Positions 1,079 through 37,504 of a stretch of 64,000 nucleotides of DNA are shown here, one piece after another (positions within the stretch are counted from its first letter, which is position 1; every line of letters starts with the position of its first letter). The stretch covers positions 12,993-76,992 of the forward strand of contig SCTS01000002.1 of NCBI GenBank assembly GCA_004322365.1. Reading direction: 5' to 3'. The stretch is from Patescibacteria group bacterium. Lineage in GTDB: Bacteria > Patescibacteriota > Minisyncoccia > Phycocordibacterales > Phycocordibacteraceae. The notes under the pieces were generated by a model. It saw only the letters and a program-made list of their open reading frames with translations. It had not been told where the DNA came from and did not search any database. A program made the position numbers and the translations under genes.

Positions 1079-3439
1079 CTAAGGAGTTCGCCCTGCCGCA
1101 ATCTCCTGTATGTAGTATTCACCTTGAGCTTTGAATGTAGCATCAATGGCAATCGCCTCCTGTAGAGCCTGAATCGCGTTTAATCTATCGCCTGCCTGCA
1201 TATACGCAGCTGCAAGCTGAACGCGTGCCTTTACATCCTTTGGTGCTTTATCAGCGCGTGCCTTCGCTATCAAAAGACCGTTCGCATAATCTCGTACATC
1301 AAAATACGCCTGCAGAATATTGTCATCGTCAGGCGTTGCTGTTCCAAAACGCTCCGTAAGAAGTTCGCGAGCAAGAGTCATGTTGCCACTCCTAATTAGG
1401 GCCGATGCATAGAAAGTGCGTGCAGTATCGTATGAAGGCTCTAGCTCATACGCTTGGCGAAATAAATCTAACCCGGTCTTCATATCTCCTCGAGCTATCT
1501 GTAAACTTCCAAGCTGAAAGAGTATTTGTTGTTTTTTGGGAGACAGTGTTAATGCTGTTGTAAGTTCTCTGAGAGCCTCGTCATTCTTTCCTATCTGCTG
1601 AAAAAACGAACCAAGAAAAACACGGAGCCTTGCATCGTTAGGGTTTAGTGCAATTTCTTCTGACATCTTTTCTAACGCATACGCTGTTGCGCCCTCTCGA
1701 AATGCAGTGTCTCCAATAGAAGAGTTCTTTGCCTGAATAGCAAATTGAACAATTTGCTCACGTACCTCTTGCCTGCCTAATCCTGTTGTCTCTCCCGCAC
1801 TCTTGAGGTAACGCACATTTTCAGCAAGTCCTGCGGTGTGAGGCTTTAATGCTTCAATGAGATTCGTTGCCGTCGCAAGTCCAGGAACATTGGCAAAATA
1901 AAATACAGCAACCATTCCTCCAACAATTATAGGAGCGCCGAATGCAAATAACCCTGATGGAACACTTTTACCCCAGAGAGTAATCAAGGCATTTGTTGAT
2001 TTTTCGTTTGACGTAGTAGTATCCGCCACATCTTCTCTACGGTGAGCAATGTACGCAAGGATGGTGAAGAAGAAGATATAGCTAACGAGATTGTCGAACA
2101 CAAACAAATCATGAAAGGCATATGCAGCAAGAAGGCCGGTCAATATTCCTCTCTCTACTATCTGAAAAGAAGATTTTGGTCGCCACAAATACCACAAAGC
2201 GAGTCCGAACAAAGAAATCCAGAGAGTAAAACCGAACACTCCACCAGCCACCAGCCAGTCAAGGTATTCATTGTGAGCACGGTCAAACCACGACTCCTGC
2301 GCATACATTGATGGAGCGTACTGTTTGTTAAAAATGTAGTTAAAGTTTTCTTGCCCCCAACCTAAGAGTGGTCTTTCAGCAACACCTTTAAGGGCCATGT
2401 TCCAAATAGCAAAACGAGCTGCACCATCAGAAATAGAGATGTTGGTAATTCGAGACAATACGCCGTTATTTTGCACAAACGAAGTGTCACGGATAGCGTA
2501 AAAGCCCCCCGCAATAACAACAAGAGTAATAATGCCTGCAATGCCTACTTTTTTTAACTTAGGTGCAGTTTTCCCAAAGAAAATAAAAATAGCCGAAGCA
2601 ACGAGAATGCCTCCAATAAGCCCAAGAATAGTTCCTCGAGTTCCCGCATAGAAAATCATGGTGAACTGTAATGCAATCGCTAGAGCATAAAACCACTGTC
2701 GTTTAACGAACAAGCTACCAATGCCAAGAGTGAAAAATAGTATAAAAATAAACCATCCTAAAGGCGGTAGTGAGGTGTCTGGAGGCAAGCTCGCAATTAG
2801 CCATAGTGTCGCACCGATGATCCCAAAGACACCAACAACTTTTTCTCCCGTTCTGAAGTATTCATGTCGGTGATGAAGGAAAAGCAATCCTACAATAAAA
2901 AGATTAAAAAGCATGTACACAGCCAGGTAGGTTGCGTTGCCAAATGTCCCATCAACACGCGAACCTCCTTGATTGATGGTAAATACACCAGCAAGCTGAA
3001 GCACACCATAGACCCCCACGGCAATAGAAACTGCGAGACTCGTTTCAAAAAGCATCTTCCACCATTTCGCTTCGCGGAGTGTTGACCACACAACGACAAA
3101 AAATGCGTAGAGGTGAATCAAACCAATCCATCCTTCCATGCGTTCAAAATTTGACCAGAAGCTCTTATGGGGATTCGCACCAAATATGTCAGCAATACCT
3201 ATGACTGCAACAAAAGCCGTGAGTGCGAAAAAGAGTAGAGATGCACGAGGTCGAACGGATACGTCCCGAAGTGCAAGAATAAGCCAAAGAGTAAATACAA
3301 TTTCAACCAAAATGCGAAAGGCAAAATTCTTACCCGTAATGAACGGGAAAAAGAGTGGCGTCGCCACAATAGTGGGAGTAAAGAATACCGCAAGAACCCC
3401 AATGACTATCCCCCATCGCAACCATGAGTCTAATTTCAT
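1079..3439 (-). CDS. O-antigen ligase / Wzy_C-family polytopic membrane protein with C-terminal TPR repeats (possible O-oligosaccharyltransferase or polymerase)
   Basis: 786 aa. N-terminal ~450 aa has many TM helices typical of WaaL/Wzy_C-type proteins. C-terminal ~300 aa has TPR-like repeats (AYxxLG..G....A...F..A.ELDP pattern). Confidence 0.55.
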   Translation of the reverse strand: MKLDSWLRWGIVIGVLAVFFTPTIVATPLFFPFITGKNFAFRILVEIVFTLWLILALRDVSVRPRASLLFFALTAFVAVIGIADIFGANPHKSFWSNFERMEGWIGLIHLYAFFVVVWSTLREAKWWKMLFETSLAVSIAVGVYGVLQLAGVFTINQGGSRVDGTFGNATYLAVYMLFNLFIVGLLFLHHRHEYFRTGEKVVGVFGIIGATLWLIASLPPDTSLPPLGWFIFILFFTLGIGSLFVKRQWFYALAIALQFTMIFYAGTRGTILGLIGGILVASAIFIFFGKTAPKLKKVGIAGIITLVVIAGGFYAIRDTSFVQNNGVLSRITNISISDGAARFAIWNMALKGVAERPLLGWGQENFNYIFNKQYAPSMYAQESWFDRAHNEYLDWLVAGGVFGFTLWISLFGLALWYLWRPKSSFQIVERGILTGLLAAYAFHDLFVFDNLVSYIFFFTILAYIAHRREDVADTTTSNEKSTNALITLWGKSVPSGLFAFGAPIIVGGMVAVFYFANVPGLATATNLIEALKPHTAGLAENVRYLKSAGETTGLGRQEVREQIVQFAIQAKNSSIGDTAFREGATAYALEKMSEEIALNPNDARLRVFLGSFFQQIGKNDEALRELTTALTLSPKKQQILFQLGSLQIARGDMKTGLDLFRQAYELEPSYDTARTFYASALIRSGNMTLARELLTERFGTATPDDDNILQAYFDVRDYANGLLIAKARADKAPKDVKARVQLAAAYMQAGDRLNAIQALQEAIAIDATFKAQGEYYIQEIAAGRTP

Positions 3440-3636
3440 CCCGTTAGAAATAGGGCGCGAACGCCTGTGCGCCCCCGCCTATTTGAGCTATGTATGTAAT
3501 ATTCGACTGTGACATGGTGAGATTCATTGACATGCGTCCGCGATTTCTAACGGGATTCATGCTGATTACTATACCATTTCTCTATCCGCATCCTGCAACT
3601 CTTCCGTGAGCCCTTGTATGAGAATAGCCAGTGCTA

Positions 3637-5253
3637 TCAGGGGTTCACGCTACAATCCCGTGCTTCGTAGATGTATATATCTTTTCCTAGTTGTTGTATC
3701 TGGTAAAAAGACGGCATAAGCATTCTGCCGAGGTTTATATCAATATCAAACACATCAGCCACCCCATTACCAAAATGTGCGAGTGGCGTGCAATTCACCA
3801 CTTCTCGCTCAACAATAATAAGATCAGCGGCCGGCACATCGGTATGCGCTAACAAATCGGAATCGTTCGTAACAACGAGTGGCCGAAACGAAATATCGCT
3901 CGAGAGCGCTTGTGTATGTTGGCACGCGGAGCCACACGATGATGGTGCATACAAAGCGTACGAAACTTTGTTCATTGGGAGCGTAAACTCAAAAATATTT
4001 TCATCAATACGAATCTCCGTATCTCCGTAACGCTCTACTATATAGTCGTACGCCACATTGTAGGTCGTAGGTATGGAGAGCAATACTATCGTATACACAT
4101 ACACAGCGAGCCCTACAACAAAAAAGACGCGCGACACCAATCGCAAAGGTGGTTTGAATGAGGCGAGGAGAAAGAGTAGAAAGAAGCCGACAGGAGCGAT
4201 GTGTCGAACATTGAGCGCAAGTCCGTGGTCGGCCCGGAACACAACCGAAACCGCAATAATATAAAGTGCGCTATACAAAAGGGCGAGGAAGAAGAGCGCT
4301 TTGTTGCGTATGCCGGCATACACAGCTGGTATGAGCGCCAAAAGAAGCAAGGGAAACGATTCAACGGCTTGACGCACATTAACTATGAGCGACTCAAACA
4401 CCGTAAGCGACGTCTGCACACTTGCACCTGCAGAATTAGACACGAAAAATTGCATCACAAATCCGGAAGCCTGCTCAACAACATTTCCCGCATTCAGTGC
4501 AAAGAACCCCAAGAACACCACCATGCCAACTGCAATCATCACTATAAGTCGCTTGAAGACTGCGGGTGTACGCCAAAATACGAAAAGAAGTATCGGAATA
4601 TTAATGAGAAAGAGGCCGGCAAAAAGGAAATTAGACGCTGCCAGAAATGCCGTCATTATTGAAGTGAATGACATCCATCCCAATTGACCACGCTCTCGAT
4701 CTTCCGTTATTGCACGGTACAGATAGATAAAAGAAACAACAATGAGAAGAATCGAGAGCATCCACATTTTGCCTGAGCGCACAAGAAGCGTGGTAAGCAC
4801 ACTGCCGAAGGTAAGCATGAGGAGTGCGAGTCGCCACTCCACACCTTGAATGTGCGCTTTCAGAAATCGGTACACTAGTATCAAGAGCGCCACCGATGTG
4901 AGCGCAGAGACAATGCGCGGTACGATGAGACTATACGAAGGATTCTGAATAAGCGCAGTTTTCAAAGCCACGATGTCGAAACCGAAAAACGGAATACTGC
5001 CAGCAAGTGCGACCACCATGGCGACATAATTCTGATAAAACGAGAGTGTGCCGTACGCGACACCGTAGCCTGGTAGAAGCGTGTGCGCTTCAATGGCACG
5101 GAGCACTCCACCGCCAAATGCCCACACATCGGTGATAGTGTTCACCATAGGGAACGCGTACCATACGCCAACAAAAAAACTTGCGCCAAAAATCATAATC
5201 ACCCACTGTTCCAGCGTCATGGCACGGAGGATGCTTCGCATTCTATTCAACAT
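3637..5253 (-). CDS. Polytopic membrane protein, probable GT-C superfamily glycosyltransferase (ArnT/PMT-like)
   Basis: About 12 predicted TM segments and a C-terminal soluble domain. Start set at the internal Met (MLNRMRSILRAMTLEQW), because the longer ORF would overlap the divergent gtrA promoter region and the REP-like repeat. Confidence 0.4.
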   Translation of the reverse strand: MLNRMRSILRAMTLEQWVIMIFGASFFVGVWYAFPMVNTITDVWAFGGGVLRAIEAHTLLPGYGVAYGTLSFYQNYVAMVVALAGSIPFFGFDIVALKTALIQNPSYSLIVPRIVSALTSVALLILVYRFLKAHIQGVEWRLALLMLTFGSVLTTLLVRSGKMWMLSILLIVVSFIYLYRAITEDRERGQLGWMSFTSIMTAFLAASNFLFAGLFLINIPILLFVFWRTPAVFKRLIVMIAVGMVVFLGFFALNAGNVVEQASGFVMQFFVSNSAGASVQTSLTVFESLIVNVRQAVESFPLLLLALIPAVYAGIRNKALFFLALLYSALYIIAVSVVFRADHGLALNVRHIAPVGFFLLFLLASFKPPLRLVSRVFFVVGLAVYVYTIVLLSIPTTYNVAYDYIVERYGDTEIRIDENIFEFTLPMNKVSYALYAPSSCGSACQHTQALSSDISFRPLVVTNDSDLLAHTDVPAADLIIVEREVVNCTPLAHFGNGVADVFDIDINLGRMLMPSFYQIQQLGKDIYIYEARDCSVNP

Positions 5254-5459: not shown

Positions 5460-5879
5460 ATGGAAACATTGCTCGGAGTGCGTCTATATCGCATAGTTCG
5501 CTACCTCATGTCGGGAGGTATTGCTATGGCGAGCAACCTCGGCGTACTGTTTCTCCTCGTACATTTCATTAATGTGTATTATTTGTACGCATCAGTTATT
5601 TCATTCATCATGTCGGCCGCCGTTTCTTTCACGATGCAGAAATTTTGGACCTTTCAGGATCGACCGATGCACGATGTACAGAAGCAATTCACACGCTACA
5701 TCGTTGTCCTTATTGCCAATCTTCTGTTCAACACTCTCCTTATGTACCTATTCGTAGAAAAAATCGGCATGTGGTATTTGTTTGCACAACTCCTTGCAAC
5801 GATGATCGTTGCAGTAAGCGGCTACTTCGGATATCGACATTTTGTATTCCGTGATCGCTCGCCCACAACAAAGACATGA
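5460..5879 (+). CDS. GtrA-family membrane protein (polyprenyl-phosphate-sugar flippase-like)
   Basis: About 140 aa with 4 TM helices; LVRYLMSGGIAMASNLGVLFLL and C-terminal YxxHRxxVF pattern typical of the GtrA family. Stop overlaps the start of the next GT-C gene (ATGA). Start could also be 5430. Confidence 0.55.
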   Translation: METLLGVRLYRIVRYLMSGGIAMASNLGVLFLLVHFINVYYLYASVISFIMSAAVSFTMQKFWTFQDRPMHDVQKQFTRYIVVLIANLLFNTLLMYLFVEKIGMWYLFAQLLATMIVAVSGYFGYRHFVFRDRSPTTKT

Positions 5880-7156
5880 TGTTCCTACGAACATACCGCG
5901 CTGAAATCATAGTAGGACTTTTGGCACTTGCGGCACATCTCGCATGCTTTGCGTTTGTACTCCATGCAAATGACGGGAGCGTACTAAACACCGTTCGGGG
6001 CGACGACGGATACTTTGAACTTGCCAAAAATGTCCTTGCGGGCAACGGATTTTCCTGGGGAGCGTCCGCACCATACGCGCCCAATCCCCTACGCACACCA
6101 GGGTTTGTGTATGCGCTTTCCGGACTCCTCGGCATCTTTGGTGTAACAGGAGCCGCGCTCATACAACTCGCTCTAGCTTCTGCTATACCAATCTTTGGCA
6201 TGTGGATTGCAAGACGCATTAGTGCTTCACAGAAAATTGGCTATCTCGCTGGAGCCATTCTCGCCCTTGATCCAACACTCGCACTGCTCTCCTTCCAGTT
6301 TTATACCGAGACACTGTTTCTACTTCTTTTCCTACCCTGGCTTCTACTCACATTCCGCTATCTTGAAAAACGAGATTGGATAACACTCGCCCTCAGCGCC
6401 GCTATCCTCGGAAGCGCGATACTTGTTAAGACAAGCGCGCAGTATATTCCACTTATCTTCATCCCATTCATCCTCTGGCACTTCGGCAAAAAAGATTGGC
6501 AACGCGGTATCGCACATGCAAGCCTGTATCTTCTTATTATCGGTGCGATACTCACGCCGTGGATCTTACGGAATGCCTATACCTTTGGTGTACCCGGCTT
6601 GAGCGCACAAACGCCGTTCGTTCTCTATACCAACCTCGCCCCCGCCGTCTTGAGCGTAGCGAAAGGAAGTGACTTTCTTCAAGAAAGAGAAATGTTTATG
6701 ACGCCCGCCGAGTACAAAGGTGATGTCATTACCCTTGCGAACGAGAGCGACTACCGGAAGCGTGCACTCGATATCGCACTCGCACATCCCGTCGCAACGC
6801 TCTATGTCGCTGGCAAGTCCCTTGTTACTTTCTTCACCAACGATGGGTTCTATACACTCCTCGTGCGTGGAGGCTATAACCCGCACGAATTTTTACCACT
6901 CATTATTGTGGCGCGACTTCTATGGGTAGCAATAACACTCGCCGCATTCGTTGGCGCACTGGTCTACCTTCTGAGGCAACGTTCACAACTCGCAATTCTC
7001 ATTATCCTTCTTATTGCTTATTTTGCACTCACCAGTACCATCGCTGCATTCGGCACCAACCCTCGCTATCGACTCCCCGTTGACCCAATCATCATTGCGT
7101 TTGCGAGCGTCGGCTACATGTATCTCACAACACTACTACGACGACGCACACACTAG
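5876..7156 (+). CDS. GT-C superfamily membrane glycosyltransferase (ArnT / PMT_2-like, 4-amino-arabinose/mannosyltransferase-type)
   Basis: 426 aa, about 11 TM segments, N-terminal extracytoplasmic loop with D-x-D/DDGYF-like motif. Translationally coupled to gtrA. Confidence 0.5.
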   Translation: MMFLRTYRAEIIVGLLALAAHLACFAFVLHANDGSVLNTVRGDDGYFELAKNVLAGNGFSWGASAPYAPNPLRTPGFVYALSGLLGIFGVTGAALIQLALASAIPIFGMWIARRISASQKIGYLAGAILALDPTLALLSFQFYTETLFLLLFLPWLLLTFRYLEKRDWITLALSAAILGSAILVKTSAQYIPLIFIPFILWHFGKKDWQRGIAHASLYLLIIGAILTPWILRNAYTFGVPGLSAQTPFVLYTNLAPAVLSVAKGSDFLQEREMFMTPAEYKGDVITLANESDYRKRALDIALAHPVATLYVAGKSLVTFFTNDGFYTLLVRGGYNPHEFLPLIIVARLLWVAITLAAFVGALVYLLRQRSQLAILIILLIAYFALTSTIAAFGTNPRYRLPVDPIIIAFASVGYMYLTTLLRRRTH

Positions 7157-7180: not shown

Positions 7181-8458
7181 ATGGACAACATGTTTCAAGG
7201 ATTGAAAAAGCGGTTTATGCAATTTCTGCTTTGGAGTCAGAAATACACCAAGACCGATATGCTCTACCTAGCTCACGGTGGCTTGTGGCTTACGCTCGGA
7301 CAAGGTGTATCGTCGCTATCCACTCTCGCTCTTGCTGTAGCGTTTGCTAACCTAGTCCCACCTGAAACATACGGTACTTATAAGTATCTTCTTTCTATTG
7401 CAGGAGTGTTCGCTATATTTACCCTTCCAGGAATGAATACCGCACTTGCGCGTGCTGTGGCGCAAGGACACGAGGGACTTATCCATTCCGTTACACGATC
7501 GCGCGTGATGCATTCTTTTCTTGGAAGCATTGTGGCGCTTGCCGGCAGTAGCTATTACTTTCTAAACAACAATCTTGAACTTTCGCTCGCCCTTCTCATC
7601 ATCGCTGCCACACTCCCTGTGTTTGATACTGCAAACGGTTACCTTTCATACCTACTTGGTAAACGCCGTTTTGATTTGCAAACAACCTATCACATGCTCA
7701 CACAGATAATAAGTATCAGCATACTCATTGTCACCATTTTCTTCACACATAACATCGTTCTTATTCTTCTCGCATACTTCGTGCCACTTATTCTGGTTCG
7801 AGGATTTCTATACTTCCACATCACGCGTACCATTTCAAAAAACGAAGCAGGGGTGGATACAATAAAAGAAACGCACACCTACGGCAAACATCTTACGGCA
7901 ATGCAGATTTTGGGAGCTATATCAGGAAATATCGATAAAATATTGCTCTGGAAATTCCTCGGACCTGCGCAACTCGCCGTGTATGCATTCGCTGTTGCAA
8001 TACCTGAACAAATCTATGGGCCGCTCAAAGGTATGAGTAATATCATGCTCCCGAAGTACGCCGTGCATGCTTCCACAGAGACGCGCCGTCCACCGCAAAA
8101 TTTTTGGTATAAATTTTTACTCTACACTTCCTTGCTTGGAATCATATCGCTTGTCTATATTGCGGTCGCACCGCTTCTCTTCCATACTCTATTTCCATCT
8201 TATACAGAAAGTATATTTTTTTCTCAAATCTTAGCACTCTCCCTTTTTACCGGAGCGCAAACAATGCCAGCCACACTGCTCACCGCGCAAAAACGCGCAA
8301 AAACACAGTATGTGTTGACCATAGTTCGATCAGCGACACAGTTAATGATGTTTATAGTCCTCATACCTATGTTCGGGATTATGGGTGCAATTGTTGCCAC
8401 AATCATCACAAATGTAGTTGGTGTAGTTAGCACGATTATTGCGATAATGATAAAGTAG
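7181..8458 (+). CDS. Wzx-type oligosaccharide flippase (MOP/polysaccharide biosynthesis protein family)
   Basis: 425 aa, 12-14 TM helices, architecture and size typical of Wzx/RfbX. Confidence 0.55.
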   Translation: MDNMFQGLKKRFMQFLLWSQKYTKTDMLYLAHGGLWLTLGQGVSSLSTLALAVAFANLVPPETYGTYKYLLSIAGVFAIFTLPGMNTALARAVAQGHEGLIHSVTRSRVMHSFLGSIVALAGSSYYFLNNNLELSLALLIIAATLPVFDTANGYLSYLLGKRRFDLQTTYHMLTQIISISILIVTIFFTHNIVLILLAYFVPLILVRGFLYFHITRTISKNEAGVDTIKETHTYGKHLTAMQILGAISGNIDKILLWKFLGPAQLAVYAFAVAIPEQIYGPLKGMSNIMLPKYAVHASTETRRPPQNFWYKFLLYTSLLGIISLVYIAVAPLLFHTLFPSYTESIFFSQILALSLFTGAQTMPATLLTAQKRAKTQYVLTIVRSATQLMMFIVLIPMFGIMGAIVATIITNVVGVVSTIIAIMIK

Positions 8459-8520
8459 CACTATGAGTGTGCGAAATTAACTCTACGCACAGCGGCTAAG
8501 ATGTAACAAATGACGTGCGC

Positions 8521-9144
8521 CTATTTTTTTGCAACAATATACACATTGGTATAAAGATCAGGATGTTTAAAATATCCTTTTCTGTCGAAGTATTTTAGAA
8601 TCCCGAAAATTCTTGTAAAAAAAGCGCTACGCAATCTACTGTAGCCTGCAGTATAGTGATCGAGATACATGCGCCTCAACATCGCCGAGATAACTGACAA
8701 TGTGCTTCCTTGTGATCCAAGTTCAATCGTTGTAAAACCTGCTCGTTCAAAATAGAATCGAGCGGCTTCCTTAGTAAAGCGATGATAATCCGAAGGGTCT
8801 CCGTGTTGAGGAAATAAAAATGGCATCGTTACTATGGCATGCCCTCCTTTCTTCAATATCCGATACATTTCTCCCACCGTTGCTGAAGTATCGTCAATGT
8901 GTTCCAAAACTTGAAATGAAAGAACGGTGTCGAAACTCCCCTCAGAAAAAGACATCTTCCTGGCATCCTCTTTGAAGTCTACCTCAACCCCAGTCTCATA
9001 TAAGTCAGCAACCAGATAATCTGAAACACTTTTCTTTATTATTTCACGATATTTTGAAGTACCTCCTCCTATATCAAGAGTTCTCCCATTAGCATATTTA
9101 GGTACTAGAGCCTTTACAACCTCGCGGGTATCAATAAATTCCAT
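8521..9144 (-). CDS. Class I SAM-dependent methyltransferase (Methyltransf_11-like)
   Basis: Motif I LDIGGGT; motif post-I and LKKGG. Paralog of 12646-13293 (same motif order, roughly 35% identity by eye). Confidence 0.65.
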   Translation of the reverse strand: MEFIDTREVVKALVPKYANGRTLDIGGGTSKYREIIKKSVSDYLVADLYETGVEVDFKEDARKMSFSEGSFDTVLSFQVLEHIDDTSATVGEMYRILKKGGHAIVTMPFLFPQHGDPSDYHRFTKEAARFYFERAGFTTIELGSQGSTLSVISAMLRRMYLDHYTAGYSRLRSAFFTRIFGILKYFDRKGYFKHPDLYTNVYIVAKK

Positions 9145-9242
9145 ATGATGGGATTATTTATTAGAATAGCATACCGGCATACCAAGACAGATTGCCCCTC
9201 GTGTTTTGCCCTGTTACGATGTAGCGTGTACACGACTTAGTT

Positions 9243-9668: not shown

Positions 9669-9703
9669 GTCGGCGCTTGTCGTCCCATCTTTCTGATGAT
9701 GGT

Positions 9704-10345: not shown

Positions 10346-10346
10346 A

Positions 10347-11591: not shown

Positions 11592-11600
11592 ATTGAAATG

Positions 11601-30189: not shown

Positions 30190-30201
30190 AGTGAAATACT
30201 T

Positions 30202-31047
30202 CTATTGCGGTCCGTGTACGCCCTCCAAAAGATCTGGATCCTTCCCCGTACTTTTGAGAAGTTGAATATTTTTTTCTTGGAGATGTTTCAATGCCCCCGC
30301 ACCAATGTTGTCATCAACATGTAATGAATAAAAATCATTAAATGCAGAAAGATCCTTTATAAGACAATACCCACCTGCGCCACGACCACCTTCAAAATTC
30401 ACTGTGAGATGGGTTTTCCCAATACGCGGATCAGCGCCAAAAGCATCCTTTACTTTTTCGTAGTCAGCGCCAATAGAGTTGGATAAATCAAAAAGCATAT
30501 TTGCAAACACCACTTTCATTGCAAGAAAAACATTGCCTGCGTACTTCACAAGCTCACTTTCCTTTGATGTAACAATCGTTTGAAATGGCGACTTTGGAAA
30601 TGTCGCAAGGACTGCCTCTGCTGCTGCTCGGTGTTCTGGAGTGTCTTTTGGTATACCAACAATATTCCTGTCAGGATTCTGAACATCCGCATCAGCTGAG
30701 CGTGCACGCAAGAATTCTGGGGAATGAAGTATGACTCTGTCAGGATACATCTCCTGAATCTTCTCAGTCGTACCGGGCAACAAAGTCGACTTAATGACTA
30801 CAATTTTTCCTACTCCGACGAGATCCATAACTCCTTCAACGATAGACGAGTCAAATCCTTCAGGTGTTGTGGGTGTTGGTACTGCAATAATAACAACGTC
30901 ACATTCTAGAATTGCATCTTTATTGCCGATATACGCAGGCTCTTTTGAATACCGCACTACTGAAAAGCCTCGACGCTCATAATCGTCGGCATACGCCTTT
31001 CCAATGAATCCTTGTCCGATAAAACCAATTTTCATAGAGTTCTGCAC
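30202..31047 (-). CDS. Nucleotide-sugar dehydrogenase homolog (UDP-glucose/GDP-mannose 6-dehydrogenase family) lacking the C-terminal UDP-binding domain
   Basis: MKIGFIGQGFIGKAYA Rossmann motif, central domain, and GGYCLIKD catalytic-Cys motif (compare GGSCFPKD). Only 281 aa, with no room for the C-terminal domain before the next gene. Confidence 0.5.
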   Translation of the reverse strand: MQNSMKIGFIGQGFIGKAYADDYERRGFSVVRYSKEPAYIGNKDAILECDVVIIAVPTPTTPEGFDSSIVEGVMDLVGVGKIVVIKSTLLPGTTEKIQEMYPDRVILHSPEFLRARSADADVQNPDRNIVGIPKDTPEHRAAAEAVLATFPKSPFQTIVTSKESELVKYAGNVFLAMKVVFANMLFDLSNSIGADYEKVKDAFGADPRIGKTHLTVNFEGGRGAGGYCLIKDLSAFNDFYSLHVDDNIGAGALKHLQEKNIQLLKSTGKDPDLLEGVHGPQ

Positions 31048-31083
31048 TGAATAGTACTAAAATAAACGCCTTTAAGCGATGCT

Positions 31084-32160
31084 TTATATAGAACACCTCG
31101 AGAGTGCCCTTTGGTAACAGAGGAGATACTCTTCCATAGACATACTATGATGACGGGCAGACTCAAGAGCCTGAGCGCCCAAACGCATGCGGATCTCCTT
31201 GTCTTCAATGAGGCGCTTCATAGCGACTGCAATTGCCGAGCTAGTTCCCGAGACTACCAAGGCTTCCTTTTTATCCTCGAACACTTCGCCAACAATCCCA
31301 ACATCAGTTGTAATTATTGCCAACCCAGAGAGCCCTGCTTCTATAAGAGATACTCCGTACCCCTCAAATCGAGACGCCTGAACAAACACATCTGCACTTT
31401 CATAGTATTGCGCAGGATCTTGCCATCCCACAAAACGAACCCTCTCCCCTAACCCTAAACGCTTTACCCTAAACTCTAAACTTTTCTTCAGCGGTCCATC
31501 ACCGACAATGGTGAGCTCAGCATCAGGAGTAAGAGCGACGGCATCAATAATTAAATGAACTCGTTTTTCACTCGTCAGTCTAGAAACTGATAGGAATTTC
31601 AAAGAACCAATGTTGGACCTCGTAGGTCCAACGTCTGAAGTGTATTCAGTATGTATAGGAAGCACTGTCACAGGCACCTTTGTAACTTTGCGGACACTTT
31701 TTAGAACACGCTCTGAAACAACACGGATGCAGGTAGCACGACCTAAAATAAAAATAGCGAGCAATGCCTCAATAACACGGCGAGGTGATTCCGTAAGAAA
31801 ACCGAGAGAAAAACAATCGGTATGGAGTTGTACTTGAAATGGAATATGGCGAGCTTTCGCAATACCGTATCCCAATACACCAATGAAAAAAGGATCTTGT
31901 GCTGACACGATGTCATATGCTTTCTCTTTAGTGAGCGCACGAAGAGTTCTTTGCATATTTAAAAAACTTGAAAATCTATTTGTACCTCCAGCAGTCACCG
32001 CTCGAACATTCGGTGCAAGTGTTATTTCTTGAGGCACTCCAACTCCAGCCACAACAATCAATAATTCATCAACAATACTGCCGTAAAGAGCCATGCGATT
32101 TGCTACGCGTGAACCTGCATCAAAAATCTTTACATCACTTGAAAGCATCAAGAGGTGCAT
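31084..32160 (-). CDS. GT4-family glycosyltransferase
   Basis: C-terminal EGYGVSLIEAGLSGLAIITTDVG GT-B motif; 358 aa. Confidence 0.65.
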   Translation of the reverse strand: MHLLMLSSDVKIFDAGSRVANRMALYGSIVDELLIVVAGVGVPQEITLAPNVRAVTAGGTNRFSSFLNMQRTLRALTKEKAYDIVSAQDPFFIGVLGYGIAKARHIPFQVQLHTDCFSLGFLTESPRRVIEALLAIFILGRATCIRVVSERVLKSVRKVTKVPVTVLPIHTEYTSDVGPTRSNIGSLKFLSVSRLTSEKRVHLIIDAVALTPDAELTIVGDGPLKKSLEFRVKRLGLGERVRFVGWQDPAQYYESADVFVQASRFEGYGVSLIEAGLSGLAIITTDVGIVGEVFEDKKEALVVSGTSSAIAVAMKRLIEDKEIRMRLGAQALESARHHSMSMEEYLLCYQRALSRCSI

Positions 32161-32161
32161 A

Positions 32162-33277
32162 TCAGTGTGTGTTCATCCCTTTTAGAAGCTTAGCGATTTC
32201 ATCAATCATGCGCTCATTAGAAAATTGCTTAACGCGCCGTTTCGCTGAAGCAACGAGATTGGCACGAAGTGTTGCGTCTCCCAAAAGAGCATTTGTATGG
32301 TTCATGATTGCATCCGCATCGTTTGCCTTCACAAGGTAGCCATTTTTTGCATGATCAACAATTTCCACATTGCCACCAACTTTGGTAGTAATAATAGGCA
32401 CGCCAATTGCCATTGCCTCCAAAATGAGATGCGAAAATCCTTCGTATGCAGTATTGAGAATAAACACATCAGACGCACGAAGATAGCGTATGAGAATATC
32501 TCGCTCTAAAGAGCCTGCGAAGATAACGTCATTCTCAACACCTGTTTCAACAGCAAGACGCTCGAGCATGCCTGCATCAGGACCTGAACCAATGATAAGC
32601 AGTTTTGTTTCTGGAAAAGATTTTTGAATTTTTGGAAGCAGACGAATGAGTGTGTCGAAACCTTTCCATGGCACCAACCTTCCCACTGATACAAGAAGTT
32701 TTCCATGAAACCTCAAGAGTCCACGAAGCACTGTTTTATTGCCAGTGTCTCCTAAGTCTTCAATGCCGTTGTATATAACTGAAACTTTTTTATGAGAGAG
32801 ATTCCATGCTCCAAGAATTTTTGCTAAATACTTTGACGGCACCACCACTCTGTCAGCACGACTTGCAACAGCACGCTCAACAAAGCGAAACATCTTAGGG
32901 ATTAGTGGAAGCGTAGCGTATTGAAATGATTCAAGGGTGCCAGTGTAACCAAAGCGTTGTGTCGCCTGCTCCCATGCGTAGTCACCAACAACTTTCAATA
33001 CAAAAGTTTTTTTCATGAAAAACGAAGCAATCATCGTCGGCACGCCGACAGACATTGGGTCTTGCGCATAAAGAATGTCAGCACGACGACCCTCCTTAAG
33101 TATGAGGAAAAAATACACTATATGGCGTATGAATTTCGGAAAACGACGGACTTTTATGAACGGCAAAACAATCACCTCAATTCCATACTGAGGAAGCGCC
33201 ACTTCAAGTTTCCTTGAATAGGTTGCGGGTCCGCCAATCTCGGGCGGGTAGAGTCCTGTCGCAATAAGGACTTTCAT
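32162..33277 (-). CDS. GT4-family glycosyltransferase
   Basis: MKVLIATGLYPPEIGGPATYS N-terminus and EGFSHLILEAMAIGVPIITTKVGG C-terminal motif. Confidence 0.7.
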   Translation of the reverse strand: MKVLIATGLYPPEIGGPATYSRKLEVALPQYGIEVIVLPFIKVRRFPKFIRHIVYFFLILKEGRRADILYAQDPMSVGVPTMIASFFMKKTFVLKVVGDYAWEQATQRFGYTGTLESFQYATLPLIPKMFRFVERAVASRADRVVVPSKYLAKILGAWNLSHKKVSVIYNGIEDLGDTGNKTVLRGLLRFHGKLLVSVGRLVPWKGFDTLIRLLPKIQKSFPETKLLIIGSGPDAGMLERLAVETGVENDVIFAGSLERDILIRYLRASDVFILNTAYEGFSHLILEAMAIGVPIITTKVGGNVEIVDHAKNGYLVKANDADAIMNHTNALLGDATLRANLVASAKRRVKQFSNERMIDEIAKLLKGMNTH

Positions 33278-33337
33278 GAGTGCACTATATCAAAATCAGC
33301 AACTTCGCGTCGTTAATTGACGAAACATGAATACCGC

Positions 33338-34285
33338 TCAAAAACTGAGACCCTGAGGACGTATAGGGTTCTCTTTTCTGAGAGTAATCAACTCACGAAT
33401 ACCCGTCTGCAAAGAAACACGAGGTGCATAGCCAAGAATGGTGGAAATTTTAGAAAGATCTGCCTGCTGATTCTGAATATAGCCTGACGGAATTGGATTT
33501 TCTATAAATGTCGCTGGTATAGCCACCTCACGCTCCGCATTAATGATGTCTACAAGGTCACGCACACTCACTGCCTCACTTGTACCAACATTGAAAATCT
33601 CAAACCCAGAAATATCCGCCGTGATGGCAAGTTCGAACGCGGAGACAAGATCATGAACGCTCGTAAAATCGCGTGTCTGTGTACCGTCACCATAAATGAC
33701 CGGCGACTTCCCTTCTTCCATTCCCCAAATAAATTGCGATACCAAATTTGCAAAAGCCCCCTTATGTTCTTCATGGGGTCCGTACACACTCATAAAACGA
33801 AACGCGACTATGGGCATACCATGGAGTGCGCTAAAAACTCTTGAGATATTTTCTTGTGCATACTTACTCACCGCATAGAAATTAGTCGGTATAACCTCTT
33901 GTGTTTCTTTGAGTGGAACCGGATTATTAGCGTACACCGATGAAGTTGAGGCAAAAAGAACTTTTTTTGCTTTCACTGCCACTGCGTACTCAAGAACGGC
34001 AATGTGCCCCAATATGTTATTAGACAGAGCTCCAGATAAATCAACAGTAAACATTGGTGATGAAGAAGACGCGGCGAGATGGATAATGATGTCTGGAGCA
34101 TCTGCTTTTTTTAAAACGGACATATCTCGCACATCACCCTCAATACAGAGAATGCCGGGCTCAAGATTTTCTGGAACGCCGAGCGAAAAATTATCTATAA
34201 CGGTAACGCTATGACCTTGCTGAGAAAAAGTATTCGCCGCATTACTGCCGATAAACCCAGCGCCACCAGTGATAAGTATTTTCAT
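33338..34285 (-). CDS. NAD-dependent sugar epimerase (GalE/WbpP-like UDP-hexose 4-epimerase family)
   Basis: MKILITGGAGFIGSN, YAVSKYA (YxxxK); 315 aa. Confidence 0.65.
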   Translation of the reverse strand: MKILITGGAGFIGSNAANTFSQQGHSVTVIDNFSLGVPENLEPGILCIEGDVRDMSVLKKADAPDIIIHLAASSSSPMFTVDLSGALSNNILGHIAVLEYAVAVKAKKVLFASTSSVYANNPVPLKETQEVIPTNFYAVSKYAQENISRVFSALHGMPIVAFRFMSVYGPHEEHKGAFANLVSQFIWGMEEGKSPVIYGDGTQTRDFTSVHDLVSAFELAITADISGFEIFNVGTSEAVSVRDLVDIINAEREVAIPATFIENPIPSGYIQNQQADLSKISTILGYAPRVSLQTGIRELITLRKENPIRPQGLSF

Positions 34286-34294
34286 GATTAATTT

Positions 34295-35389
34295 TTATGA
34301 AAGGTGTGGCTCGTTTTCAAGAAGCCGTTGCAATGTGGGCTTTATATCCTGACTTCTATTTTTAGACATAATCAAGACCGCGTCTTCAGTTTCTACCACA
34401 ATAAGATTATCAACCCCAATAGCAACGATTGGTCTATGGGTACTTATGAGGAGAGTATTTTTACTTTCATGCTCAACCACTTTCCCTGCAGTATGAAGAC
34501 CCTTCTTTCTTTTCTGAGTGAGAATACTGTGTACGGCTTCCCAATCACCGATATCAGACCAATCGACAGAAGACGGAATAACAATGAGTCGTGCAGTCTT
34601 TTCAGTAATCAAGTACTCAAACGACTGTTTTGATAGTTTCTTAAAATACACTCCTGCACTTTTTGATTTATCTGCGAGAGCCCCTACAAGAAGATGAATA
34701 TTTTCTTTATATTCTTTTTTCGATTTCTTCAGCATCTCCAAAAGATTTTTTGCGTTTGTGATTTTATAGCCGGTATTCCATAAGTAACGCCCAGAAGCGA
34801 TGAACTTCAATGCGTGCTTTGTGTCAGGCTTCTCAACAAAAGATTCAACACGGTACAGCGGTGCCCGAAATCCTTTGATTGGCTTCGCATCATTAAAACG
34901 TATATATCCTAAACCTGTGTGAGGTGAAAGTGGTCGTACTCCTATCATCACAATATCCTCAGGAAACTGCCGTGCTGCATCAAAACCCAACGCAACAGAG
35001 TCATGAAAAATCTTCGGAGTATCGATGAGATGGTCTGAGTTAAAAATTCCTACAGTAGCATCTTTATCTTTTGCATAAATCACCGCCGCAGCAAACGCAA
35101 ACGCTGGTGCGGTATCACGAGCTTCAGGTTCAATGATTATGTTCTTCTTCGCAATATCTGGCTCCTGCTCCTGTATATACGATAAATATTCTGCAGGAAT
35201 TTGTACAAAAATCTTCTCTGGGGCGAATGACAGCAAGAGCTGTTTGTACATGAGCTGAAAAAGCGTTTTCTCTCCAACGAAGCGTTGAAACTGCTTCGGT
35301 TTATTTTTTCGACTCAAAGGCCAAAGTCGTGTTCCGCTACCGCCAGCCATGATGACTGCGTAGTCATGAGAGTTTTTTGTTTTTTTCAT
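34295..35389 (-). CDS. Mannose-1-phosphate guanylyltransferase-like nucleotidyltransferase (ManC/CpsB N-terminal domain type)
   Basis: AVIMAGGSGTRLWPLSRKNKPKQF signature; 364 aa, no cupin/PMI domain. Confidence 0.6.
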   Translation of the reverse strand: MKKTKNSHDYAVIMAGGSGTRLWPLSRKNKPKQFQRFVGEKTLFQLMYKQLLLSFAPEKIFVQIPAEYLSYIQEQEPDIAKKNIIIEPEARDTAPAFAFAAAVIYAKDKDATVGIFNSDHLIDTPKIFHDSVALGFDAARQFPEDIVMIGVRPLSPHTGLGYIRFNDAKPIKGFRAPLYRVESFVEKPDTKHALKFIASGRYLWNTGYKITNAKNLLEMLKKSKKEYKENIHLLVGALADKSKSAGVYFKKLSKQSFEYLITEKTARLIVIPSSVDWSDIGDWEAVHSILTQKRKKGLHTAGKVVEHESKNTLLISTHRPIVAIGVDNLIVVETEDAVLIMSKNRSQDIKPTLQRLLENEPHLS

Positions 35390-35435
35390 AAAAATACTCG
35401 AGGAGTATGAAGTGTAGCAGAATCAGAAAAATGGC

Positions 35436-36638
35436 TCAAAATATACTGAACACCCTTTCTCGCATATCTTTGGCAATGTGATTCCAGTCATATCCTTTCT
35501 CGGTAAGTGCCTCTGCATTCTGTACCACTACAGCTACGGCTTCAGGGTGCGCCAATATATGCTTCACCGTTTCAGCTATCTGCTTAGGGCTGTCAGCGTC
35601 AACCGCAAAACCGGTTGGTGCTTTATCTGGATTGCGCACCGAGTCAAAGAGAAAATCAGCAATACCTCCTTCTTGGGTTGCAATCACAGGGATGCCACTA
35701 GCAAAAGCCTCTATAAATGAATTTCCCATACCCTCCGAGCGTGAAGGTCGAATGAATATGTCGGACACATGAAGATACTTCGGGATATCCCCGTAGGTAA
35801 CATGACCAAGAAACAGCACCCTAGTTTGTAACTTGGAGTTTGTAACTTGGAGTTTGAGCTTCTCTTCATCCGGACCAGTGCCGAGAATAAGAAATTTTAT
35901 ATTTTCAGGGAGAAGTGAGAGTGCATGAATAACATCATCAATTGCATTTTTATGAACGAGTCGTGATGCAGTAATGAGAAAAATATCATCCTTCCCTTTA
36001 TGGAGTTTTTCTTTAAGAGCAATGAGTTCCAACACAGGAACTTCCTTTGAAAACGCCACCGTGTTAACACCATTTGGAATTACTATCGGCTCGCCTGCAT
36101 AGCCCATTCGTTTTGCCCACGCCCCAAGAAAAGTGGAAATAACCTGCACCCTATCTGCACCTGTAAAAGCATATTTAAATAGAGGCCACGCTGGCAATGC
36201 AAGTCGTTCAATATATTTTGGCGGATCTCCCTCTTGAAGAGTAAGAACATATTTAACTGAAGGCTTAAGGAGTTTAAATATCCCTACTGCAATACCCACT
36301 GAATGCGCCATCATCCCCCATATCCCGTCGTAGCGGTATTTCTTATGAAGAGTAAGTGCGTAGAAAGGTGCGAGGCCTTGGAAAAGAAATTTATTTAAAG
36401 CAAGCGGAAACTTCTTTAAATCAGCCATTGACGGGTTGTTGGTAACAAACCCAATGCGGTGCACCAACACATTTCCTACCTGCTCCACTTTTGGTAGAGC
36501 CGAATCAAAACGAAGCGTCACCATATGAAACTCAATGTCTGTGCAGGCTACACGGTCGGTAATATCTTTAATGGCAACCTCAGCGCCCCCTATATATTTT
36601 GGATAGTATGCGAGAGAAAAAATGAGAACTCGTTTCAT
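35436..36638 (-). CDS. GT4-family glycosyltransferase
   Basis: LAYYPKYIGGAEVAIKDI N-terminus and EGMGNSFIEAFASGIPVIATQEGG C-terminal motif. Contains a 14-nt tandem duplication at about 35826-35853. Confidence 0.7.
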   Translation of the reverse strand: MKRVLIFSLAYYPKYIGGAEVAIKDITDRVACTDIEFHMVTLRFDSALPKVEQVGNVLVHRIGFVTNNPSMADLKKFPLALNKFLFQGLAPFYALTLHKKYRYDGIWGMMAHSVGIAVGIFKLLKPSVKYVLTLQEGDPPKYIERLALPAWPLFKYAFTGADRVQVISTFLGAWAKRMGYAGEPIVIPNGVNTVAFSKEVPVLELIALKEKLHKGKDDIFLITASRLVHKNAIDDVIHALSLLPENIKFLILGTGPDEEKLKLQVTNSKLQTRVLFLGHVTYGDIPKYLHVSDIFIRPSRSEGMGNSFIEAFASGIPVIATQEGGIADFLFDSVRNPDKAPTGFAVDADSPKQIAETVKHILAHPEAVAVVVQNAEALTEKGYDWNHIAKDMRERVFSIF

Positions 36639-37504
36639 TTCTTTCCTGTTACTTCATGAATGTACTCTGCCACACCTTTAGTCGGATTCCATCCCAGTGC
36701 CTGAGCCTTAGAAATATCAATAGCGGAACTGAGTCGGTTTCCTGCTCGCTCTGGCAACATCTCTATTTCGCCACCAAACATCTGTGCGATTTCGAGGACT
36801 GAATACTCTTGCGTATCTCCGAGCCCATAGTTATCGCCCTCACCTTTTTCACCAACCAGCGCCAGACCAGCAACAATGTCGCCAACATACGTGAAATTAC
36901 GCTTCTGTGTTCCCGGTGTCACCACACCGAGCACTTCTCCTTTCAAATGCTTCTGTCGAAATATTTCAATGAGCGTCCCGTATGCTCCGGAGCGCTCTCG
37001 AGGACCGTACACATTGTAGAAATAAGTAACTGCATACGACAGCCCGTACCACTCACCATAATTTTTTACGAGCTCAGTGTTCGCTGCCTTTGTCCACGCA
37101 TACGGAGTAGCCGTGCGACTCAAACCTCCATCACCAAACTTTGTTGAGGAACCCGCGTAGACTATTTTGCATTTTCGTTTTCTCCAAAACTCCAACACCC
37201 CAAAAGTACCGAGGGTATTCAAGTCAAACACCAACTCTGGTTCAGCGAGACTTATTTCCACGCGCGAATATTCACCAAGATGGTAGATGAGATCGATGTG
37301 CTCAGGAACAAACTTCTCAATGTCTTTCGTGTGTCCTTCTCGGTAATCCACCCCCGCAACATGGTTATCCTTTGAGCCAGCAAAATAGTTATCGAGCGAG
37401 ATGACCGTATGGCCATCTTTTACCAACCTCTCGCACAAGTGCGAACCTACAAGCCCAGCTCCGCCAGTGACTAAAATAGTTTTCTTTCCTGAGTCTTGAG
37501 CCAT
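36635..37504 (-). CDS. NAD-dependent epimerase/dehydratase family SDR (function unresolved; decarboxylase, reductase or epimerase)
   Basis: ILVTGGAGLVGSHL, YAWTKAA (YxxxK), NVYGPRE; 289 aa. Confidence 0.55.
   Translation of the reverse strand: MAQDSGKKTILVTGGAGLVGSHLCERLVKDGHTVISLDNYFAGSKDNHVAGVDYREGHTKDIEKFVPEHIDLIYHLGEYSRVEISLAEPELVFDLNTLGTFGVLEFWRKRKCKIVYAGSSTKFGDGGLSRTATPYAWTKAANTELVKNYGEWYGLSYAVTYFYNVYGPRERSGAYGTLIEIFRQKHLKGEVLGVVTPGTQKRNFTYVGDIVAGLALVGEKGEGDNYGLGDTQEYSVLEIAQMFGGEIEMLPERAGNRLSSAIDISKAQALGWNPTKGVAEYIHEVTGKK

Follow-up and report, generated by a model that had tools for sequence, protein, structure and literature searches.

In three-component glycosylation systems, a GT2-type glycosyltransferase (GT) with C-terminal transmembrane (TM) helices, a GtrA protein, and a GT-C enzyme are encoded alongside each other. 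Known systems include GtrA/GtrB/GtrC of Shigella and Salmonella phages, CsbB/GtcA/YfhO of Firmicutes, ArnC/ArnT, the streptococcal GtrB/PgtC2 and Pgf systems, and the pentofuranose systems of Kelly et al. 2024. The scheme is established for glucose, N-acetylglucosamine (GlcNAc), galactose, 4-amino-4-deoxyarabinose (Ara4N), and pentofuranoses (PMC11127046), and in streptococci, GtrB plus GT-C systems glycosylate Ser/Thr-rich regions of proteins (PMC12041528). Here we describe a locus from an ultrasmall Patescibacterium of the groundwater type (contig SCTS01000002.1 of assembly GCA_004322365.1) that encodes all three components together with the enzymes for a rare deoxysugar. The DNA that we analysed is a stretch of 64 kb, which we call the window. 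Positions 1079-37504 of the window are a near gap-free series of glycan-related genes, according to the listing of open reading frames (ORFs) and to profile searches with Pfam and NCBIfam. We read this as a surface-glycan locus of mosaic structure, built around a three-component extracytoplasmic system that probably uses a rare dTDP-sugar via polyprenyl phosphate; we would put the probability of this reading at roughly 0.5. The assignments below come from Pfam, NCBIfam, and PDB sequence searches, from fold comparison, and from a scan for TM segments. All of the ORF scans were within the window.

We began with the deoxysugar. Outside this locus, 2,6-dideoxy-3-C-methylhexoses are known from antibiotics (macrolides and aureolic acids). 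The D-mycarose and L-mycarose pathways of actinomycetes (MtmD/E/V/C/TIII for mithramycin and TylA1/A2/X3/C1/C3/K/C2 for tylosin) use a succession of RmlA, RmlB, 2,3-dehydratase, 3-ketoreductase, 3-C-methyltransferase, and 4-ketoreductase. The same succession of enzyme families is encoded on the minus strand of the window. RmlB (dTDP-glucose 4,6-dehydratase, 22659-23735; GDP_Man_Dehyd 1.2e-77 and Epimerase 6.9e-59) and RmlA (glucose-1-phosphate thymidylyltransferase, 21941-22657; NTP_transferase 1.8e-54) are followed by an RmlD-like reductase that is a candidate 4-ketoreductase (21085-21918; RmlD_sub_bind 7.1e-56). The lengths of these three genes agree with those in relatives. The next gene (19831-21060; Methyltransf_14 6.9e-57, Methyltransf_13 2.1e-19) encodes a putative NDP-hexose 3-C-methyltransferase with an N-terminal zinc-binding domain. 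In the PDB, it matches the D-mycarose 3-C-methyltransferase MtmC (4RV9, 3.9e-97), TcaB9 (1.1e-85), and also KijD1. Then come a single-domain NDP-hexose 2,3-dehydratase of 212 amino acids (18880-19518; Pfam Hexose_dehydrat 1.8e-58, EvaA 4J7G 9.6e-71) and an NDP-sugar 3-ketoreductase of the GFO/IDH/MocA type (17888-18895), which matches the KijD10 structure 3RBV ("sugar 3-ketoreductase") over its full length at 7.8e-64. A DUF218 protein (23786-24553, minus strand; 1.5e-11) is encoded ahead of RmlB, and a DUF218 gene lies inside the module in L002, L106, L018, and L019 as well. (Numbers with L are our identifiers for homologous loci in other genomes.)

The six enzymes predict dTDP-2,6-dideoxy-3-C-methylhexose, a sugar of the mycarose or olivomycose type. 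RmlA and RmlB would make dTDP-4-keto-6-deoxyglucose; the EvaA-like dehydratase and the KijD10-like ketoreductase would strip the 2-hydroxyl; the MtmC-like enzyme would methylate C-3; and the RmlD-like reductase would act on C-4. We predict a neutral sugar because the window has no aminotransferase and because MtmC, the best match of the C-methyltransferase, acts on a neutral 2,6-dideoxy substrate. A 5- or 3,5-epimerase is needed for sugars of the L series only, and no protein in the window matches dTDP_sugar_isom/RmlC. The only cupin in the window (9243-9668) lies outside the conserved core and has weak matches to sugar cupins. Since the core lacks an RmlC-type epimerase, the gene set does not fix the D or L series, nor the stereochemistry at C-3 and C-4.

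We then examined the membrane enzymes. The gene at 24550-25479 (minus strand), just ahead of the DUF218 gene, encodes a polyprenyl-phosphate glycosyltransferase of the GtrB/ArnC type, with a GT2 domain and two C-terminal TM helices (residues 233-251 and 272-290). It aligns end to end (residues 6-307) with Synechocystis GtrB (5EKP, 1.5e-45) and with ArnC (9BHC, 7.7e-45). Its best NCBIfam models are PgfS (1.8e-59) and ArnC (4.4e-50), both below their cut-offs, so the family is assigned by homology and the profiles do not give the sugar specificity. A small GtrA-family protein with four TM segments, putatively the flippase for a polyprenyl-phosphate sugar, is encoded at 5460-5879 on the plus strand (GtrA_DPMS_TM 1.7e-25; the ORF opens at 5370 and the start at 5460 is inferred). 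Its gene overlaps, by ATGA, a gene for a 426-residue GT-C of the PMT_2/ArnT type (5876-7156, plus strand; Pfam PMT_2 1.2e-10), which has the motif RGDDGYFE after its first TM segment. All three sequence features of a three-component system (a GT2 with C-terminal helices, GtrA, and the GT-C fold) are thus present.

The window also encodes a second membrane protein that has the GT-C fold by fold comparison (3637-5253, minus strand). It has 11 predicted TM segments. (Its ORF reaches 5469; we set the start at 5253 by comparison with homologs.) Among its 112 homologs, 111 are at least 50% identical to it and one is 28% identical. All of them are unnamed or "hypothetical" and none has a Pfam domain. 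Their source names are all Patescibacteria except for one labelled Azotimanducaceae. Asp42, in the first loop after the first TM segment, is invariant; this is the position where GT-C enzymes carry their catalytic acidic residue. Because of the fold match and the invariant Asp42, we assign this protein as a second GT-C, from a family that Pfam does not see.

The last membrane enzyme (1079-3439, minus strand) joins a Wzy_C domain (5.6e-19), of the type found in O-antigen ligases, polymerases, and O-oligosaccharyltransferases (O-OTases), to C-terminal tetratricopeptide repeats (TPR; several families, residues ~570-786), and it has about 13 TM segments. On its own, the Wzy_C domain does not tell these three activities apart, and in a sequence search of the PDB the membrane part of the protein matched none of the solved ligases or O-OTases. 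Sequence-only searches of the PDB likewise gave no match for either of the GT-Cs or for a 98-residue ORF (17595-17891, plus strand). This ORF is acidic and helical-looking, and it has no Pfam match either.

To find related loci, we scanned one genome per GTDB species for the C-methyltransferase and then mapped all of the window's proteins onto the loci with tblastn. About 17 loci have a C-methyltransferase that is 62-96% identical to the one in the window, followed by a gap to 49% or less. These clade loci are all from Patescibacteria, apart from a few bins that are likely mislabelled. The closest representatives are a Ca. Paceibacterota metagenome-assembled genome (96%) and Parcubacteria group bacterium Greene0714_7 (95%). 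The group at 49% or less includes other Patescibacteria, DPANN archaea, Chloroflexota, and others. Similarly, the 120 C-methyltransferase homologs that we listed are 67-97% identical, and those that carry a source name come from Patescibacteria, Parcubacteria, Kaiserbacteria, or Paceibacterota, with two exceptions (one labelled Azotimanducaceae and one unclassified "bacterium").

For counting synteny, we used 19 non-redundant loci from the clade and 60 loci from outside it. Genes for the dehydratase and the ketoreductase lie beside the C-methyltransferase gene in all 19 of the clade loci and in none of the 60 others. Wherever the DNA reaches, the clade loci have the order RmlB, RmlA, RmlD-like, C-methyltransferase, dehydratase, ketoreductase. 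(The exception is L021, which is rearranged and has no detectable RmlA or RmlD-like gene.) A homolog of the GtrB-like protein (69-100% identity) is encoded ahead of RmlB, directly or across one gene (DUF218), in 13 of the 15 loci whose DNA spans this junction. At the other end of the module, in L004, L007, L015, L016, L018, and L022, three opposite-strand genes directly follow the ketoreductase gene (the 98-residue ORF, the PMT_2-type GT-C, and GtrA), and the second GT-C comes after them. The Wzy_C-TPR gene comes after the second GT-C in L007 and L022, and it adjoins the second GT-C in L106 as well. The window's own gene order recurs in the independent assemblies L002, L003, L006, L008, L086, and L088, so the locus is not an assembly artefact.

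Two compact relatives are particularly telling. In L106 (GCA_019752595.1), the entire locus, from Wzx to MurB, is about 19 kb and has no GT4 enzyme. Its order is Wzx, a methyltransferase, a GT2-methyltransferase fusion, a LamG/Big_7 protein, GtrB-like, RmlB, RmlA, RmlD-like, DUF218, C-methyltransferase, dehydratase, ketoreductase, the 98-residue ORF, PMT_2, GtrA, the second GT-C, a cytidylyltransferase-cupin protein, Wzy_C-TPR, GIY-YIG, and MurB. In L107, whose contig opens only some 150 bp before the GtrB-like gene, the genes run from the GtrB-like gene through the second GT-C and on to isoleucyl-tRNA synthetase, and the DNA read has no GT4 either. In these two loci, no transferases other than the GtrB-like enzyme and the two GT-Cs go with the sugar genes consistently. 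That this association is kept without a GT4 in the DNA read is one of the points for a route through polyprenyl phosphate. The window is an expanded version of the locus that adjoins murB in L106 too: about 10 kb (7181-17540) separates the GT-C operon from the sugar operon and from the GT-C operon's own 98-residue gene. (Equivalents of 98-99 residues are found in L002, L004, and L106. In L004 and L106 the GtrA-GT-C operon ends with this gene, whereas the window's copy has stayed beside the ketoreductase gene.)

More distant homologs of the C-methyltransferase (41-47% identity) are common in DPANN archaea, including Micrarchaeota, Woesearchaeota, Aenigmatarchaeota, and Iainarchaeum, and are also found in Chloroflexota. 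They are often encoded beside Gmd- or RmlD-like genes, without the 2-deoxygenation pair (L025, L027, L030, L033, L034, L036-L040, and others). In four loci from outside the clade (L049, L054, L073, and L079), a GtrB-like gene is also beside the C-methyltransferase gene.

We propose the following mechanism, whose membrane steps are suggested by synteny. The GtrB/ArnC-like enzyme would load the dTDP-sugar onto undecaprenyl phosphate (Und-P), GtrA would flip the lipid-linked sugar across the membrane, and the two GT-Cs would pass the sugar to one or more extracytoplasmic acceptors. The Wzy_C-TPR protein would serve the same surface pathway. We speculate that two GT-Cs could mean two acceptors, or else priming and extension as for mycobacterial arabinan. 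This would differ from known three-component systems in several ways. The synthase gene heads the operon for a dTDP-2,6-dideoxy-3-C-methylhexose, which implies a dTDP-deoxysugar donor; there are two GT-Cs in the window, one of them without a Pfam model; the unit usually includes a Wzy_C-TPR protein; and the envelope of the host, a Patescibacterium, is uncharacterised.

Several points weigh against this proposal. As far as is known, the characterised GtrB-type enzymes all use UDP- or GDP-sugars, and a dTDP-deoxysugar donor has no known precedent. In the window, some 10.7 kb separate the GT-C and GtrA genes from the sugar genes. A homolog of one of the GT4 enzymes (GT4_3, 25581-26681, minus strand) is encoded upstream of the GtrB-like gene, directly or across one gene, in 10 of the 19 clade loci. 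The RmlD-like protein scores 178 bits against TIGR01214, below the cut-off of 224. All characterised 2,3-dehydratases are twice as large as the one in the window, whose activity is therefore a prediction. No initiating phosphoglycosyltransferase (of the WbaP/PglC Bac_transf or WecA/MraY type) was found among the ORFs scanned in the 64 kb, and this leaves the Wzx-dependent branch of the locus incomplete as seen; such an enzyme may be encoded elsewhere in the genome. Finally, all of our functional readings rest on sequence, fold, and synteny.

Some of these points would fit a conventional Wzx/Wzy heteropolysaccharide, such as a capsule, a secondary cell-wall polymer, or an O-antigen-like glycan. 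A Leloir enzyme (GT4 or GT2) would add the dTDP-deoxysugar to a repeat on undecaprenyl diphosphate in the cytoplasm, Wzx would flip the repeat, and the Wzy_C-TPR protein would polymerise or ligate it. GtrB, GtrA, and GT-C would then add a glucose or GlcNAc branch, as in the seroconversion of Shigella and Salmonella, which would agree with the UDP-sugars taken by the characterised GtrB homologs. GT4_3 could be the Leloir transferase. Like O-antigen and capsule loci, the window has Wzx, a Wzy_C protein, many transferases (seven GT4 and one further GT2), Gmd, and ManC, and it is a mosaic with higher-GC variable blocks and serotype-like replacement between strains. Unlike them, it has no initiating phosphoglycosyltransferase and no chain-length regulator in the 64 kb, and its Wzy_C domain is fused to TPR. 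A related Parcubacterium is not known to make lipopolysaccharide (Castelle et al. 2017; PMC5220378). A heteropolysaccharide would also have to account for the GtrB-like gene being the first gene of an invariant sugar operon in most clade loci, and for L106 and L107, which keep the sugar genes with GtrB-like, GtrA, and two GT-Cs and show no GT4 in the DNA read (although a transferase could be encoded elsewhere). On balance we consider the heteropolysaccharide unlikely, if still a serious candidate. We think it quite improbable that the locus works like the slg clusters of Geobacillus and Paenibacillus, as the sequence-only reading had suggested, with Wzy_C acting as a WsaB-type O-OTase that transfers an oligosaccharide en bloc to Ser, Thr, or Tyr and with the TPR recognising the acceptor. 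What the two have in common is a Wzy_C protein, here fused to TPR, together with rml and sugar methyltransferase genes in one monoderm-like locus. The window also has an adjacent co-directional gene for a surface protein with a Ser/Thr-rich linker, and the streptococcal precedent for glycosylation of Ser/Thr-rich regions by GtrB and GT-C (PMC12041528) could be cited for this reading as well. But this surface protein is tied to the glycan genes in close relatives only, and the Wzy_C domain does not discriminate among O-OTases, ligases, and polymerases. In Geobacillus, the slg clusters encode a Wzm/Wzt exporter and an initiating enzyme of the WsaP type, and they are linked to an S-layer gene. 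In the 64 kb we found no Wzm/Wzt ABC exporter (the only ABC pair is FtsE/FtsX, 54683-56306), no WsaP-like enzyme, and no gene for an S-layer or S-layer homology (SLH) protein; Wzx and GtrB/GtrA/GT-C are present instead. And the conserved core is a system with a monosaccharide donor, not an en-bloc one.

Least credible of all is a cluster for a glycosylated natural product. It would explain why the best structural homologs (EvaA, KijD10, MtmC, and TcaB9) come from antibiotic pathways. Yet in the 64 kb there is no polyketide synthase, no nonribosomal peptide synthetase, and no gene for making a terpene or any other aglycone. A natural-product glycosyltransferase of the GT1 type is absent too, and the invariant neighbours of the sugar genes are membrane enzymes of envelope glycosylation. 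Compared to the actinomycete mycarose pathways, the core in the window also lacks a 5-epimerase, and it has one Nudix-type dehydratase domain (212 residues) in place of two (~470 residues).

This dehydratase deserves a closer look. Characterised 2,3-dehydratases consist of two Nudix-type domains, and in EvaA, pocket A is active while pocket B is a remnant of the duplication (PMC8987622). The window's single domain does not have this architecture. It aligns to both halves of EvaA, with 153 bits for residues 40-244 and 86 bits for residues 262-458. In the alignment to 4J7G, the catalytic residues Glu139 and Glu190 of EvaA correspond to Glu104 and Glu154. In every relative, the protein is 212-220 residues long and the genes for the C-methyltransferase and the ketoreductase abut or overlap its gene. 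Because the length and the abutting neighbours are constant, the half-size protein is not the product of a frameshift. We also considered whether a 138-residue ORF (19515-19931) could be the missing half, and rejected this: that stretch is a GIY-YIG cassette that is absent from L002. When we searched 1.84 billion cluster representatives and kept the best 150 matches, 148 of them aligned in two stretches, and most of these are about 400-500 residues long. The short close relatives among the best 150 are two single-stretch proteins of 247-248 residues and one protein of 351 residues (55-59% identity); more distant single-domain forms would score below this list.

Returning to the three-component reading, what might the acceptor be? 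Directly upstream of the island and co-directional with it, just outside positions 1079-37504, is a gene (37523-38956, minus strand) for a membrane-anchored surface protein with a signal peptide, an LTD domain (2.2e-24), a PKD domain, and a C-terminal TM segment. It has a 47-residue linker rich in Ser, Thr, and Gly (20 of the 30 residues at 173-202 are Ser or Thr), and the window encodes no second protein of this kind. Speculatively, this protein is a candidate acceptor. As a conserved acceptor we rejected it, as its gene adjoins the glycan genes in close relatives only; in distant relatives it is paired only with the next upstream gene. That gene (within 38999-41283, minus strand) encodes a 511-residue protein with weak similarity to HerA/TrwB-type P-loop proteins and a Lys/Pro-rich tail, and the pair is kept even in the distant L092 and L094. 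We tentatively extend the proposal, at somewhat less than even odds, to the whole group: Patescibacteria related to Kaiserbacteria would put a 2,6-dideoxy-3-C-methylhexose on an envelope acceptor by way of an Und-P donor, a dTDP-specific GtrB, two GT-Cs, and a single-domain dehydratase. The sugar could then end up on a wall polymer or on surface proteins that are rich in Ser and Thr, of which the LTD/PKD protein is an example.

The remaining genes of the locus form an exchangeable periphery. Next to the GT-C operon is a Wzx-type flippase (7181-8458, plus strand; Polysacc_synt 9.4e-21). It is followed by a trio that varies between strains: two methyltransferases identified by Pfam (MT_a, 8521-9144, and MT_b, 9704-10381, both on the minus strand), with the small cupin (9243-9668, plus strand) between them. 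The cupin's matches to the C-terminal domain of Cap5F, to WxcM, and to FdtA (E = 0.028) are all weak. Then, on the minus strand, come GT4_1 (10347-11591), Gmd (11601-12599; TIGR01472 at 463 bits, above the cut-off), MT_c (about 12646-13293), GT4_2 (13311-14363), MT_d (14396-15133), and a GT2 of 271 residues (15241-16056). MT_c and MT_d are Pfam methyltransferases. The GT2 gene is coupled by ATGA to a gene for a soluble protein of 488 residues (16053-17519, minus strand; the ORF has 495 codons), and the whole block at 10347-17519 is variable. We considered this protein as a membrane GT-C, and rejected this since it has no TM segment and, by fold comparison, is an (alpha/alpha)6 barrel. Its named homologs are all from Patescibacteria, only two homologs have any Pfam match (Alginate_lyase), and one is fused to a GT4. 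It is possibly a new family of carbohydrate epimerases or isomerases, or of hydrolases.

On the other side of the sugar operon, all on the minus strand and mostly identified by Pfam and NCBIfam, are GT4_3, a short GT4 (26671-27591), a 173-residue protein from the ORF listing with no assigned function (27588-28109), two tandem YvcK/CofD paralogs that are 61% identical to each other (28106-29209 and 29206-30189), a homolog of UDP-glucose dehydrogenase that lacks the C-terminal UDP-binding domain (30202-31047), GT4_5 (31084-32160), GT4_6 (32162-33277), a short-chain dehydrogenase/reductase (SDR) of the "epimerase" type (33338-34285), ManC (34295-35389), GT4_7 (35436-36638), and a second SDR "epimerase" (36635-37504). 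The CofD pair and the truncated dehydrogenase recur as a trio in L006, L008, L009 (with one CofD), L086, and L088. We suspect that the periphery (seven GT4, one GT2, four O/N-type methyltransferases, Gmd and ManC, the SDRs, and Wzx) builds a strain-specific, methylated oligosaccharide that contains 6-deoxyhexose, with a lipid as the carrier and Wzx as the flippase.

These genes turn over quickly between strains. Relative to L002, which is 95-97% identical, the window has extra DNA at 8477-9242 (MT_a), 9659-10400 (MT_b), and 19519-19812 (the GIY-YIG cassette). L006 and L008 have cores that are 94-95% identical to the window's, yet the block after the ketoreductase gene differs. The region 25581-37504 is semi-variable: it is kept in the close relatives L006, L008, L086, and L088, except that ManC and its neighbour, the SDR at 33338-34285, are missing from L086 and L088. 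The GC content is about 0.50 at 10-18 kb and 0.42-0.45 elsewhere. This block has a mean similarity of 85% to L013, while the core has 76%, which hints at lateral exchange of blocks. By analogy, turnover of this kind would be expected of loci that determine serotype through surface glycans. Most of what looked like a dense set of transferases is variable periphery, not a fixed 36-kb unit.

The GIY-YIG cassette (19520-19830, minus strand) is not part of the sugar pathway. The unit of about 311 bp consists of the 20-bp motif CCCCCACACCTTT(T/C)ATCTCA, an 84-residue ORF (19537-19791; GIY-YIG 8.6e-18), and an inverted copy of the motif, so that the flanks form a perfect 20-bp inverted repeat. It sits at different junctions in different loci: between the C-methyltransferase and the dehydratase in the window, between the dehydratase and the ketoreductase in L006 (11890-12201), and between RmlA and the RmlD-like gene in L013 (1831-2141). 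Empty junctions retain one forward motif (21919-21938 in the window; 11231-11250 and 9123-9142 in L002). The downstream copy of the motif is the ribosome-binding region for the next gene. The cassette looks mobile, with the 20-bp intergenic motif as its target.

The locus is chromosomal, in a Patescibacterium of the Parcubacteria/Paceibacteria type, and lies between murB and the gene for the Ser/Thr-rich surface protein. The window begins inside murB (1-714, minus strand), of which we translated about 238 N-terminal codons. A spacer of 364 bp between murB and the stop codon of the Wzy_C-TPR gene has no ORF and no Rfam match (we scanned 1-1100). We considered a plasmid origin and found no sign of one, as a blastn comparison of the sugar module to plasmids matched only a distant 128-bp stretch of rmlB. 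Genomes of the Candidate Phyla Radiation (CPR) are typically about 1 Mb, of which 36 kb would be a sizeable share. A PADLOC scan of the flanking genes gave only weak matches to HerA/Mad8 and Cas2-like proteins, and no defence system tied to the island. Adjoining the 511-residue gene is a gene for a membrane-anchored protein with a PaaX_M/Cas2-like domain. Further on (42077-45097, minus strand) is a gene for a secreted protein of 1006 residues with an LCAT-type alpha/beta-hydrolase (lipase/acyltransferase) domain, which is kept in the close relatives L086 and L088. CPR organisms are expected to lack fatty-acid synthesis, and this protein could bear on lipid scavenging. An S-adenosylmethionine (SAM) riboswitch (RF00162, 50853-50948, plus strand; 46.1 bits, just over the gathering score) precedes metK (51015-52067, plus strand), about 13 kb from the island with its five SAM-dependent methyltransferases.

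Most of the gene list that the sequence-only reading gave for a surface-glycan locus of Patescibacteria holds up in the profile searches. Pfam, NCBIfam, or the PDB agree with it on Wzy_C-TPR, GtrA, the GtrB-like enzyme, and Wzx. Both of the GT-Cs that it named are borne out, one by PMT_2 and the other by its fold and Asp42. The genes for GDP-mannose (ManC and Gmd) and dTDP-hexose (RmlA and RmlB) routes have the expected profiles, its two epimerases are the two SDRs, and the YvcK/CofD paralogs and the truncated dehydrogenase are as described. The GT-like genes are glycosyltransferases by profile, and the core is strictly syntenic in about 19 loci, so that neither of the outcomes named as refuting the sequence-only reading is seen. 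Some of the counts change: it had at least eight GT4/GT-B enzymes and we find seven, and there are indeed two GT2 enzymes, but only if the GtrB-like one, which it counted separately, is included. There are five methyltransferases, including the C-methyltransferase, as it stated; its pair of clear paralogs (MT_a and MT_c) are only 33% identical. The FdtA-like label for the cupin and the HAD label (E = 0.016) have weak matches behind them and are tentative. Overlaps of the ATGA type are real (six, plus one GTGA). The 8.5-37.5 kb region is not strictly co-directional, as the cupin and 98-residue genes are on the plus strand, and because the run of minus-strand genes extends past the island to about 50.5 kb (with uniformly negative GC skew), co-directionality is a property of the region rather than of the island. 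That reading missed the 2,3-dehydratase, the 3-ketoreductase, the RmlD-like reductase, DUF218, the barrel protein, and the GIY-YIG cassette. Overall, it is partly supported. It was right about the kind of locus, in that the gene content does predict methylated deoxyhexoses for a surface glycan, and wrong about the closest analogy, and it overlooked the distinctive conserved core. It had also stated that such a glycan is uncharacterised in CPR organisms. This agrees with our literature searches on CPR or Kaiserbacteria with mycarose, glycosyltransferase, or O-antigen, which gave no description and nothing that links CPR or Patescibacteria to such a deoxysugar pathway. An earlier study of CPR genomes (Castelle et al. 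2017; PMC5220378) went no further than noting numerous glycosyltransferases, the presence of rml genes, and an envelope of unknown nature. The extracellular attachment of such sugars by way of a lipid carrier appears to have no earlier description, either for this class of sugars or for these organisms.

The envelope surface governs attachment to hosts and exposure to phages, and the hypervariability of the locus suggests that there is strong selection on surface chemistry. For one clade, the proposal makes testable predictions. The rare sugar would add 144.079 Da as a residue (158.094 Da with an O-methyl group), its donor would be linked to a lipid, and two transferases and one glycoprotein are named as candidates. 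By-products of the analysis are a GT-C family that is invisible to Pfam and an unclassified family of cytoplasmic (alpha/alpha)6-barrel proteins that is tied to a GT2. A natural half-size 2,3-dehydratase would be useful for understanding the EvaA fold. If the proposal is true, then one of the GT-Cs founds a new family, and the single-domain dehydratase is a minimal form of the duplicated EvaA architecture. If the inference about the donor is true as well, then the substrate range of GtrB-type synthases would widen to dTDP-deoxysugars, and branched 2,6-dideoxy sugars would shift from secondary metabolism to the biology of the cell surface.

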